Source: Cetorhinus maximus (Eukaryota). Taken from it: a DNA stretch of 64,000 nt. A model generated the notes under the pieces. The model had not been told where the DNA came from and made no database searches. It saw nothing but the letters and a program-made list of their open reading frames with translations. A program made the translations under genes and the position numbers. Positions within the stretch are counted from its first letter, which is position 1, and every line of letters starts with the position of its first letter. Where the stretch lies: NCBI RefSeq assembly GCF_964194155.1, contig NC_135884.1:99572001-99636000 (forward strand). Direction: 5' to 3'. Shown in pieces: positions 29,801 to 34,994 of this stretch.

Positions 29801-32800
29801 ATGGCTTTCCTTTGGATTCTCTCCTGTCTTGCTTTCTTTGGCGGGGCTTATGGACGCCGTAAGTTATAACATATTGTAACATTGTATTTTAAGTTTCTAT
29901 TTTATTCTACTCTGTTGTAATGGGGAGATTGACTCCTGTTTGTACATTGGCTTCCAACATAGACTGTGGGACGCCGGCCATCAGTCCTGTCATCACAGGC
30001 TATGCAAGAATCGTGAATGGTGAAGATGCCGTTCCAGGATCTTGGCCCTGGCAGGTCTCCCTTCAGGTAGGTTGAAGCTAAGGTTTCAGGTCTGTGTAAC
30101 TCCTAGTCAGATATATTATGAACACCTTGCTCTGTTTAAAAAGGTCACCTTTCCAAAAAGGGCCAAATGCTCCTGGTCAGTTTGCACTGGGGGCTCTGTG
30201 TTCATTTTGATGAGCATTGAATTTCTGCCTATAATGTCGCTGAAGAATATGCCCTGGGCAAACAAATAATTTTCCATATAATATTGATAAAACAAAATAA
30301 CACTGATGGTGCATCATCAACAGGAATGTGCTACCAGCAGCTCAAGGTCTTGCGTGAATCCATGGCCAGTTTCAAAGAATGCGAGGTGATGACTTAACCA
30401 TGATGTCAGCTAATTTAGACATTTAAAAGTAAGGCGTGTTCAGATCAAAACATGTATGTATTTGTGAAAGTCAACCTCTGAACCAGTGACATGGGGCATC
30501 CAATGTGCTGCTCACTCATACTTCTGTCATAATTACCTCCCCCCCCACCACCTTCATACAAAGCCAGGGATGCGGGGATCAATGCTTGTAAGACTGATAA
30601 TTCTAACAATAATGGTTCAAATATTGGATTTTTTTTTTGATTGATGCTTTCTTTTCTGCATTAGCAAAGGAATGGCTTTCATTTCTGTGGTGGCTCCTTG
30701 ATTAACGAAAACTGGGTTGTTACTGCTGCCCATTGTGGTGTGAGGTAAGGTTACAGCATCAGCATCTTCAGAGTCTATATTAAATATATAAAGGGACATA
30801 ACATTTATGAGCCTGATATTTTTTTCTGTAGCACAAGACACAATGTAGTTATTGGAGATTACGACAAATGCACAGCAGATGGAAAATCTCAGACCATTTC
30901 AGTTGCTAAGGTAGGAATGCTCCAATCTTCACAGTGAATTTTATTCAAGGTCTCATCGATTCAGTTTAAATATAGAAACTGAAATCAGTAACTGTCTTTA
31001 AAATAATCTAAAGCAGTAAAAGAATATTTCCAACAGTGTCTGTTCAAATTTGTCTTTTATTTTTTGTGTGCTAGTTTTTTTTTAATTAATCCTTTTTTAA
31101 AATAAACTCCTGTCTCTATATAATGTAACATATTTGCTGCATTGATTACTTTCCCAAGCTCAAATGCCTAACTTTGCTTTTTATTGAGAAACCCAAATGT
31201 AGGTCTCAGGCCCATATCACGGGACATGACCAGAGAAGGCCTGAGGCCCATAATACCTGGACATCACCGGGGAAGGGTCAATGTTCATTGTAAGACATCA
31301 CCAGGGAAAGACTGATATTTGATAATGCAGGACATCACCAGAGAAGAGCCTGGGCTCATATTGTAGGGTTTGAGGCCTATGAGCAGCGCACCACCAGGAA
31401 TAGCCAATGCCAATAGTGCAGAACATTGCCAGGGATAGAAGGGCCATGAGCCATGATGCAGGACATTGCCATGGGAAGAGCTAAGGGCCCTTATACAGTC
31501 CATCATTGACTGAAAGCAATGGCAAAGACCAGAAAAATCAAGAAATGGTTGGGAGGAACTAATCTGCGTCTTGTGTCTTACAGGCCATTACTCATCCTTA
31601 TTGGGATCCAAAAACCATCAACTACGACATCACTCTTGTAAAGCTCTCAAGACCTGTTACGTTCAGTCAAATTGTATCCCCTGTTTGTCTAGCTGCTGCA
31701 AATGACAACTTCAGTGCTGGAAAGCTGTGTGCCACTACAGGATGGGGGCTGACTAGCTCCAATGGTATGACATCTCCATTGCTTTGGTGTGAGCAAAATT
31801 ATGTTGACTGCCGTAATTGGATTTGAGAGAAAAAAAGTTGTTGGACATGAAGGGCTGGATTTAATGCTGCCCGTCATAGCAGGAAAGAAGCCGGCCAGAC
31901 TCACTTAATCACAGGAAAGGCCAGTGTGAGTCTCCTGACAGCAGCAAAACCTCCCGCGGTTAAGTCGGAGGGCTGATGTGGGATTCCCAGCCACCAGCGA
32001 CGGTGTGTCAATTAGACTCATAAATGAGCCAACTGATACCCACTATCGCTGAGCCCATTGCAATTTAGTGGTGCCTCAGGGGTGAAATGGGGGCCACATG
32101 GCTTTCCCATACCCTTGGAAGGCCATCCACAATATCCTCCCGGGGGAGTCCCTCGCCTAATAGGCATTCTGTGCCCGATCGTTGGACCAGGCAGCAGGCA
32201 GGCGAATGGCAGCAGAAAGCCACACCCCCTGCCCTTGTCTCCGACCCCCATGCCTCCTTGGTCCCACCACACCCACCCTACAATCCCCATCTCGCCTTCA
32301 CTCACCTTTGGTCTGGGACCCCTGGGGTGATCCTGGGCATTGCTGCCAGCTACCACTGCTTCTGCTGAAGCTGGTGGCATGAGGAGCTGCCAGCTTCTGA
32401 TTGGCTGGCAATGCTCAGTGGGTGGGACTTCTGCTGCCAGGATAGGTTATGTGAGGGTGCAAAAATTTGCCAGGTGGAGTATAATGTGGAAAAATGTGAA
32501 GTTGTCCTCTTTGGGGGGGAAGAATAGAAAAGCAGTATATTATTTAAAAGGAGAGAGACTGCAGGGTGCTGTGGTACAGAGGGATCTGGATAAATGAACC
32601 ACAAAACGTTAGCATATAAGGTGCAGCAAGTAATTAGGAAGGCAAATTGGAATATTGGCCTTTATTACAAGGAGGATGGAGTATAAAAGTAAGGAAGTCT
32701 TGTTACAACTGCACAGGATATTGGTTAGGCCACACCTGGATTACCATGTACAGTTTTGGTTTCCTTGTTTAAGGATGGATATGTTTGCACTGAAGAGGGC

Positions 32801-34994
32801 TCATTAGGTTGATCCCTAGGATGAAGGGGTTATCGAATGAAGAAAAATTGAGCAGGTTGGGCTTATATTCATCGGTGTTTAGAAGAATGAGACATGATAT
32901 TATTGAACTATATAGAGCAGAATCTTGCCCTTGGATGGCGTGCAGGCCCCACCGGCTTGGCGGCAGGCAGGCAGCTGACCCCCGCCACTGAAACGGGGCC
33001 CGCCGCCATTTTAAGTGGACAGGCCAATTAAGGTCCGCCCAGCGGCATCCCAGATGGGAAGCACTGTGCGCTTCCTGTGTGGGGGGGAGGGATTCCCCAA
33101 ATGTCAAAGTGCGTTCTTTCGCGCATGTGCGCGTAAGAGTGCACTTCTCCCTGAGGCAAAGTCCTGTCTCAGGGAGAATACTGACAGTGTCAAAAACATT
33201 AAAAATAGAAACATTAAAAAATTATTAACATGTCCCCCTAATGTGACAATGTCACACGAGATGGGACATGTTAATAAAGAACACATAAACTTTATTAATT
33301 TTTTACAAAACGGACATGAAACTTCATCCCGCCAGTGGATGAAGTTTCATGAATAATCTGGAGCCCACTGGGGCTCCTGGCCTGCCCGCCAGCCTTAAGG
33401 TTGGACGGGCAGGTCTTTAATGACTTTAATTAGCCTGTCAATGGCCTCAATTGGCCATTGACAGGACAGCGGGTGGACAGCTGATTTTGCTGTCCGCCCG
33501 CCTTCCTAAAAATTTAAATGGACCGTGATGACGTCGGGGGTTCCTCCCAACGTCATCCCGCATCATTTTCCCCTCGGCGACCGGGCCCCGCCCCCAAATT
33601 GCCAAGGGGAAAATCCTGGCCATAAGATCTGAGGGCGATTGACAGGATAGATGTTGAGAAGCTGTTTCCCCTCGTGAGGGAAATCAAGAACTAGGGGGCA
33701 TGGTTTTAAAATAAGAGGTCTCCCATTTAAGACAGAGATGAGGAGAGATTTTTTTCTCTCAGAGGACATAATCGTTGGAATTTTCTTTCCCAGGGAGGAG
33801 TGGAGGCAGAGTCATTGAATATATTCGAGGCTGAGTTAGACAGATTTTTGATCTACAAGTGAGTCAAGGATTATGGGGACAGGCTGGGAAGTGGAGTTAA
33901 GGCCACAATCAGATCAGCCATGATCTTATTGAATGGTGGAGCAGGCTCGAAGGGCCAAATGGCCTACTCCTGCTCCTATTTCTTATGGTTCTTATGTTCT
34001 CCTGGGGAGTAACCAGTTACAAGTCACTGTTGATTCTTTGTGTAATCTTGTTGAGCTCAGTTGCTGCCCTATCACATTTGTAACTGTTAAAGGAAGCATT
34101 TGATTTTATAGAGCTGTATCAGTTAGTTTCTGGGGTGGAAAAGGATCATCGCCATATTACTTTTAAAATAAACTGTGGGAGAAGGATACGGAGACAGCGA
34201 TTTAAGCTATTTAAAAGTTACAGGGCGGTTCTTCCTGCAGAAAATGATCAACATTTGGATTGGAGATACAAGTAGAGTACTGCATGAGAAAGCTCTGGAA
34301 TCTCTGAAAAGAGAACTAAATGGAACAATGGAGCAGTGTAGGGTTACTCCAGAGGGAAGGAATTAAGATGGGCTGAATGGCCTTCTCTATAATGGAGTAT
34401 CTTTTGAGCTTATTTCAAAAAAAAGGAATGTGACAAATACTATCCATACCATTTATCTATAATGATATACTGCCCGGGATGTGCACTTAAGACCAAAGTA
34501 TAAGTAATAAGCAGGAGTTGCAGTAAGGGCCCCAAACATTTCAAGAACAAGTGCTGTACAAACACAAATAACATTTTATTAGTTCAGGACGATCTAACAA
34601 TCCTTTCCCCTGCCCTTCAGCTTTTAGAACGCCTTGCGTCCTGCAGCAGACATCTCTTCCCCTCTTGAGCAACACCATGTGCCAGAAATATTGGGGCAAC
34701 ATGGTCTCTGATCTGATGATCTGCGCTGGTGCTTCAGGTGCTTCCTCCTGTATGGTATGTAAACCTGCACTCAGAAAGGTTCATTCAGCATCATTCAGTG
34801 CTGCCTATTAAATCGGATTTGTTTGTTTACAGGGTGACTCGGGTGGACCTCTTGTCTGTCAGGAGGGAGGAGCCTGGTATCTGGTGGGAATCGTTTCCTG
34901 GGGCAGTGGCAATTGCTCCACGAGGAAGCCTGGAGTTTATGCCCGTGTGAGCAAATTCCGCAGCTGGATTGATGAGACACTTGCCATGAATTAA
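29801..34994 (+). CDS. ctrb: Chymotrypsinogen B-like precursor, tandem copy A, 265 aa; exons 29801-29858, 29963-30066, 30665-30744, 30832-30910, 31584-31764, 34621-34754, 34833-34994
   Basis: GT-AG introns and open spliced frame (798 nt). [59 protein letters not shown]; Ser189/Gly216/Gly226. Confidence 0.95.
31205..31500 (+). repeat. Degenerate ~37-bp tandem repeat in intron 4 (also +11995 and +23952)
   Basis: Core GGACATCACCAG(A/G)GAAG recurs about 6-7 times with decay. Confidence 0.6.
32445..34000 (+). mobile_element. CR1 LINE 3' fragment in intron 5, interrupted by a MITE
   Basis: [12 protein letters not shown] and RLGLYS motifs; tail TCTTATGGTTCTTATGTTCT. Confidence 0.85.
32915..33621. 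mobile_element. Harbinger-type MITE (707 bp)
   Basis: TIRs GAGCAGAATCTT and AAAATCCTGGCC; perfect TSD ATA/ATA; CR1 host continuous across it. Confidence 0.88.

Follow-up and report, generated by a model that had tools for sequence, protein, structure and literature searches.

The 64,000-nucleotide (nt) stretch of basking shark (Cetorhinus maximus) DNA analysed here (the window; contig NC_135884.1, positions 99,572,001–99,636,000 of the forward strand, assembly GCF_964194155.1) carries three near-identical chymotrypsinogen genes, copies A, B and C, whose product has two cysteines, Cys74 and Cys153, beyond the canonical ten of the zymogen. We find that these two cysteines are strictly paired in every intact sequence that covers both positions, and we predict that they very probably form a sixth intramolecular disulfide bond. 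Two lines of evidence make this bond likely: the strict coupling of the cysteines over separate lineages, and a published contact between residues 74 and 153 in trypsin.

A chymotrypsinogen with 12 zymogen cysteines

Each of the three copies comprises seven exons and six introns, all with GT–AG boundaries, and a coding sequence of 798 nt. The 265-residue product contains 13 cysteines, one of which lies in the signal peptide, leaving 12 in the zymogen. Both additional codons are in frame, that of Cys74 in exon 4 and that of Cys153 in exon 6, as had been read in all three copies in an earlier analysis of the window (the original prediction), which also described the upstream paralog correctly (Table 1). 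The translations are identical, letter for letter, to two database proteins labelled chymotrypsinogen A-like from Cetorhinus maximus, P0425 (the product of copies A and B) and P0420 (the product of copy C). Moreover, a 464-nt contig from run X5 (another sample of this organism, by our guess RNA) joins exons 5, 6 and 7 with zero mismatches; it spans the Cys153 codon and ends short of exon 4. Because the repeat units that carry them are 98.8–99.7% identical, copies A, B and C are treated as one observation.

Residues were numbered by way of P0005, an 87%-identical homologue that aligns without gaps to bovine chymotrypsinogen A. On this scale, all ten canonical cysteines (1, 42, 58, 122, 136, 168, 182, 191, 201 and 220) are present in addition to 74 and 153, and the bovine equivalents of the two extra cysteines are Gly74 and Asp153, as the original prediction had stated. 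The replacements that it listed at Glu70, Glu78 and Tyr146 are also found, the shark residues being Asp70, Gly78 and Ser146. By every feature of its sequence that we tested, the product is an ordinary chymotrypsinogen (S1A, CTRB type). It matches the Trypsin domain (PF00089, E 2e-74), has His57, Asp102, Ser195 and the GDSGG motif, and retains a 15-residue propeptide with Cys1 (the partner of Cys122) and an Arg15–Ile16 activation site. The S1 pocket is open (Ser189, Gly216 and Gly226), and from these residues together with Met192 the specificity is likely to be of the ordinary chymotrypsin type. The shark genes with both cysteines (hereafter, Cys-pair genes) group with CTRB-type sequences, the CTRL rows splitting off at 100/98 support.

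Cys74 and Cys153 occur together and are old

The original prediction had treated co-occurrence of the two cysteines across orthologues as a mark of the bond, and co-occurrence is what we observed. A cluster look-up and three protein searches together gave 279 vertebrate proteins (two moth proteins being excluded) with 295 domain hits, from which we dropped 25 that did not cover both loops; three of those dropped are chimaera models in which one cysteine is seen and the other loop is missing. Both cysteines are present in 32 of the remaining 270 domains and neither in 236. Cys74 never occurs alone, and the two domains with Cys153 alone (P0029 and P0431) come from faulty chimaera gene models in which exon 4 has been replaced by other sequence. 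The 32 Cys-pair domains, which include the three entries of the locus itself and alternative chimaera models, represent 15 genera of cartilaginous fish (sharks, rays and chimaera) and the lungfish Protopterus.

To place these genes we used a tree of 58 rows from which columns 74 and 153 had been removed before building. The cartilaginous-fish Cys-pair genes form two paralog clades, with a chimaera gene in each, that are joined at 95/87 support; their sister, at 96/92, is a clade of shark and ray genes with ten cysteines, including the upstream paralog in the window. There is no loss of the pair among the 29 cartilaginous-fish domains of the two Cys-pair clades. Downstream, the first gene past the window (G000:C6:99636931-99654794, which would be 64931–82794 if the window were extended) matches P0123, a member of the second, older Cys-pair clade with Thr189 and Ser226, and has both Cys74 and Cys153, so that, of five intact chymotrypsinogen genes found at the locus, four have the pair. 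On the same tree there are three state changes, and both cysteines shift together in three of three independent pairs.

This distribution indicates that the pair is ancient, inherited from a very old ancestor rather than gained in the basking shark gene, and independent of the triplication. The original prediction had assumed two gains in this gene, which gives way to inheritance given the two paralog clades, the 15 genera and the lungfish; the association that it drew with the triplicated genes is likewise lost, because the pair is found in the next downstream gene and across cartilaginous fish.

Beyond cartilaginous fish, three lungfish genes have both cysteines; a fourth, P0358, has Ser74 and Ser153 and is nested among them (98/86), and a fifth, outside this clade, has Gly and Asn. 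The one coelacanth chymotrypsinogen gene retrieved (P0388/P0426) has Ser at both positions, and the pair was not found in any sampled ray-finned fish, tetrapod or coelacanth chymotrypsinogen. A single jawed-vertebrate origin was considered and set aside: it was backed by a quick tree that included a single lungfish gene (Shimodaira–Hasegawa-like approximate likelihood-ratio test, SH-aLRT, 86), and a fuller tree, with four more lungfish and coelacanth rows, parts the lungfish from the cartilaginous fish. Forcing the two together is not rejected (P value of the approximately unbiased test, p-AU, 0.54, or 0.12 with the Ser/Ser lungfish gene shut out), and the lungfish and cartilaginous-fish pairs may have had either one origin or two.

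As a separate observation, P0422 from Carcharodon starts like the signal peptide of the ten-cysteine upstream paralog and is a 12-cysteine gene in the remainder; it is either a chimeric model or a true hybrid gene.

The pair recurs in distant proteases

We also examined the top 150 representatives from a profile search, mostly multi-domain proteins and a non-random sample of the family. Of their 397 domains, 354 span the region, 327 were left after removal of those more than 90% identical, and 314 cover both columns. Cys74 is present in three of these 314 domains and Cys153 in three, and they are the same three: two belong to one wax-moth protein and the third to axolotl ovochymase-1. Outside the Cys-pair lineages, 236 vertebrate domains and 311 distant ones have no cysteine at either position. 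A screen of all column pairs placed near the top 136–201, columns 23/26, 1–122, 50–111 and columns 191/219 (191–220), which we take to be known S1 disulfides (columns 23/26 presumably being of the 22–27 type), together with indirect pairs such as 122/201.

The second protease domain of axolotl ovochymase-1 (P0225) and the trypsin-like domains of pyralid moths (P0354, P0418 and P0419) resemble the shark enzyme in having cysteines exactly at 74 and 153 when positions are counted from Gly69 and Leu155. They differ from it in their trypsin-type pocket, with Asp189, and are 37–41% identical to it. Neither cysteine is present in the ovochymase-1 of buffalo, marmot, turtle and frog (four orthologues), and a related moth protein has three domains with both cysteines, two with neither and one with Cys74 whose second loop is unaligned. 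Because orthologues or sister domains thus lack both cysteines, the axolotl and moth gains are separate. Across the family, the sequences point to at least three separate gains, perhaps four, and to at least one joint loss.

Other pairs of cysteines also co-occur in distant S1 domains (P0288, P0285, P0319 and P0333), at columns 67/82, 25/117 and 135/235, and are candidates for lineage-specific disulfides.

A predicted staple between the 70–80 and autolysis loops

The accessible part of PMC12114109 describes trypsin (6B6T, in the numbering of His57, Asp102 and Ser195) as having Asp153 next to Asn74, in persistent side-chain contact. AlphaFold models of P0005 (mean predicted local distance difference test score, pLDDT, 88) and of the locus's own P0425 (80) both assign isolated beta-bridge residues at positions 72 and 154. 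Such a 72–154 bridge is a pattern of the chymotrypsin fold, and would set 74 and 153 side by side. Consistent with that fold, the P0005 model matches bovine chymotrypsin with a template modelling (TM) score of 0.98 by target and superposes on the best chains at 1.0–1.6 Å. In addition, because the protein is secreted and its cysteine count is even, Cys74 and Cys153 have no free partners other than each other. The staple between the 70s loop and the autolysis loop that the original prediction proposed hence gains from the co-occurrence and from the trypsin contact, with the bond itself still predicted; as the best explanation of the observations as a whole, we hold with good confidence that Cys74 and Cys153 link the 70–80 loop to the end of the autolysis loop.

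Like the other five, the bond would be formed in the oxidising secretory pathway, and it would put a covalent staple in place of the polar 74–153 contact seen in trypsin. It would fasten the N-terminal barrel to segment 153–157 of the C-terminal one and, once the autolysis loop had been nicked, would join chains B and C a second time, in addition to 136–201. In the nicked bovine enzyme (PDB 1ab9), chain B has 131 residues and chain C has 97, which places residue 74 in chain B and residue 153 in chain C. The likely outcome would be slower unfolding, better tolerance of nicking and a stiffer junction between the 70–80 and autolysis loops, and we lean slightly towards stabilisation as the main effect of the bond.

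Where the loop might be nicked bears on this mechanism. In mouse chymotrypsin, the autolysis site Tyr146 was replaced for protection (Y164A when counted on the precursor; PMC11937528, accessible sections). It is lost in the shark enzyme, in which Phe149 and Arg150 remain as possible nick sites. An aromatic residue, Leu or Met is found at 146 in 3 of 29 cartilaginous-fish Cys-pair domains versus 99 of 227 others. Because one of these residues is present at 148 or 149 in 16 of the 29, including the basking shark gene (Phe149), a nick beside Cys153 is still possible. In urokinase, damped motion of the 140s loop has been linked to higher kcat (PMC11154964, as far as its available text goes), and by analogy an effect of the bond on activity is plausible.

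Several observations weigh against the staple. The sign test on the three independent vertebrate chymotrypsinogen pairs gives P = 0.25, these being too few for significance, and the hypergeometric P value of 2e-7 for co-occurrence of 74 and 153 in the distant set is too strong, because one moth protein contributes two related domains of the three. Most vertebrates either lost the pair or never acquired it, so that it is dispensable. As for the geometry, PMC12114109 is, in the part available, a gas-phase computation that words the chemistry of the contact loosely, so that we use the adjacency alone; the 72–154 pairing comes from DSSP letters together with the usual pattern of the fold, rather than from a partner list. 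Confidence in the loops is moderate, the blocks that contain 74 and 153 scoring 81 and 90 in one model and 81 and 83 in the other, and the block preceding 153 scores 64 in the P0425 model. The solved chymotrypsins among the top alignments (bovine A and rat B) have Gly74 with Asp or Glu153 and hence no pair, and no solved protease with the pair is among the top alignments listed (bovine and rat chymotrypsin, kallikrein and others), a comparison that did not screen the PDB as a whole.

Alternative explanations for the pair

The bond could be real and yet nearly neutral: the geometry at 74 and 153 would suit a disulfide, and the pair would be kept because loss of a single cysteine leaves a harmful free thiol. 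This explanation accounts equally well for the strict coupling, and it fits the fact that one lungfish paralog and all sampled chymotrypsinogens of ray-finned fish, tetrapods and coelacanth lack the pair. We nonetheless consider it unlikely, because the pair has been kept from chimaera to rays and sharks in two paralog clades, with no loss in 29 domains, and because each gain needs two changes, yet there have been at least three origins.

The staple might instead replace a lost calcium site in the 70–80 loop. In chymotrypsin, Glu70 and Glu78 bind calcium, although our literature search did not confirm this. Both glutamates persist in 216 of the 227 other vertebrate domains versus 0 of 29 cartilaginous-fish Cys-pair domains; the original prediction had set the glutamate changes beside the cysteines. 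However, both are also kept in 0 of 9 shark and ray paralogs with ten cysteines and, conversely, in 3 of 3 lungfish Cys-pair proteins. Because the ten-cysteine paralogs have changed too and the lungfish pair proteins have not, the Glu70/Glu78 change follows lineage and not the Cys pair, which detaches the two features from each other and makes a calcium-site replacement improbable. The glutamates are of some interest in themselves: both are kept in 0 of 38 cartilaginous-fish CTRB-type domains, and three clades have lost them differently, a possible lineage-wide loss of the calcium site (exon 4, for example 30832–30910 and 11920–12001).

That the pair adapts the enzyme of cartilaginous fish to body fluids rich in urea, a link that the original prediction had raised as a speculation, is in our judgement very improbable. 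Among chymotrypsinogens the pair is indeed confined to cartilaginous fish and lungfish, both of which handle high urea. However, it is also present in axolotl ovochymase-1 and moth proteases, and it is absent from the one coelacanth chymotrypsinogen retrieved, from an animal that retains urea, and from the ten-cysteine clade of sharks, that is, within the same animal. Our search of the literature on urea in the elasmobranch gut and chymotrypsin returned nothing relevant.

Finally, the cysteines might not be bonded to each other at all, being free, metal-binding or linking two molecules, as their surface position and an adjoining His71 or Asp72 in the lungfish, axolotl and moth proteins would allow; this is just as hard to credit, given the strict pairing in every intact sequence, the direct proximity of 74 and 153 described for trypsin (accessible part of PMC12114109), the secretion of the protein and the fact that His71 is not kept in the basking shark Cys-pair clade (Tyr or Phe).

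The chymotrypsinogen locus

The three copies lie in tandem repeat units (Table 1) that are 98.9% (A and B), 98.8% (A and C) and 99.7% (B and C) identical over aligned columns. Contig depth in run X1 is 133–181 on the chymotrypsinogen copies versus 66–68 on the single upstream paralog, which hints at genuine extra copies rather than an assembly artefact, with the qualification that depth is not a copy number and that X1 is perhaps the assembled sample.

Table 1. Chymotrypsinogen genes, extra-cysteine codons and repeat units, in window coordinates
Feature	Position	Strand	Details
Chymotrypsinogen copy A	29801..34994	+	Exons 29801-29858, 29963-30066, 30665-30744, 30832-30910, 31584-31764, 34621-34754, 34833-34994; 265 amino acids, 12 zymogen Cys
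Cys74 codon TGC, copy A	30869..30871	+	Exon 4, 70-80 loop; in frame
Cys153 codon TGC, copy A	34635..34637	+	Exon 6, end of autolysis loop; in frame; spanned by spliced contig of run X5
Chymotrypsinogen copy B	41795..46989	+	Coding sequence identical to copy A; Cys74 42864-42866, Cys153 46630-46632
Chymotrypsinogen copy C	53752..58946	+	3 nt from copy A, all in exon 1; Cys74 54821-54823, Cys153 58587-58589
Tandem triplication	23822..59201		Units 23822-35249, 35254-47244, 47249-59201, each ~12 kb
Upstream chymotrypsinogen paralog	8970..14250	+	Canonical 10 zymogen Cys; Ser74, Asp153, Ala70; in-locus control

Exon 1 of the Cys-pair copies is 6 nt longer (29853–29858) than that of the upstream paralog, which adds two residues before Cys1, and this extension is common to most Cys-pair genes. 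A 19-bp minisatellite lies about 0.8 kb upstream of each copy (28062–29019, 39611–41014 and 51625–52971, with 51, 74 and 71 units, respectively). At 5105–6385 the window holds a decayed chymotrypsin-like gene with a CTRL-like exon 4 and stops in exons 2 and 5. Outside the window, exons 4 and 7 of a CTRL-like gene, both with open frames, are found at about G000:C6 99669150–99670340, and tblastn found no other exons of this gene in the fetched region. Elsewhere, about 25 near-identical serine-protease exon matches at G000:C34 (about 10.87–11.46 Mb) mark a large tandem protease array, and there are more on C702 and C270.

Discussion

Chymotrypsin is the standard against which disulfide patterns, zymogen activation and autolysis are compared, and the solved chymotrypsins seen here all have five bridges. 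The Cys74–Cys153 pair is real, conserved and recurrent, and it is a modest variant, apparently undescribed, within a known kind of variation, that of extra disulfides. A natural sixth bridge, kept in all major cartilaginous-fish lineages and recurring in unrelated proteases, would mark a site at which a covalent bond between the two barrels is tolerated by the fold. It would also offer a two-residue handle on the relation between 140s-loop motion and activity, and a starting point for making digestive or laboratory proteases more robust; it opens no new pathway.

A wider proposal can be put forward tentatively, and we think it rather doubtful in full: that 74–153 is a family-wide, repeatedly evolved and undescribed disulfide of trypsins and chymotrypsins, gained at least three or four times, in cartilaginous fish, lungfish, a salamander ovochymase and moths, which would lock the autolysis loop to the 70–80 loop, damp a loop that tunes catalysis and leave the enzyme active after nicking, and which was perhaps present in the first jawed-vertebrate chymotrypsinogen and then lost in bony fish and tetrapods.

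We found no description of the 74–153 pair in the literature searched for it, a search whose scope excluded most subscription and older papers (for example, Prahl and Neurath 1966, on dogfish chymotrypsinogen) and supplements. The accessible parts of PMC11170211, PMC7366634 and PMC9669250 hold nothing bearing on the pair. Elasmobranch pancreatic enzymes are described as not fully characterised or sequenced (PMC4362833, in the text available).

Compared with bovine chymotrypsinogen A (PDB 1acb_E sequence and 2cga; S1A), the shark protein aligns gaplessly with the 245-residue zymogen and has the same catalytic triad, activation site and pocket, and the same ten cysteines. It differs in having Cys74 and Cys153 in place of Gly and Asp, Asp70, Gly78 and Ser146 in place of Glu, Glu and Tyr, Phe149–Arg150 in the autolysis loop, and two extra residues before Cys1. 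Within the S1 family, the pair resembles lineage-specific disulfides such as 50–111, 22–27, the C-terminal clamp of snake-venom proteases and 125–125p of factor B, in each of which a subfamily-restricted pair of cysteines is added to a conserved core. In the accessible part of PMC2628669, which reviews extra S1 disulfides, those named clamp insertions or tails and do not include 74–153. By contrast with the bonds named there, the 74–153 pair links two core positions with no insertion, and it recurs in separate lineages.

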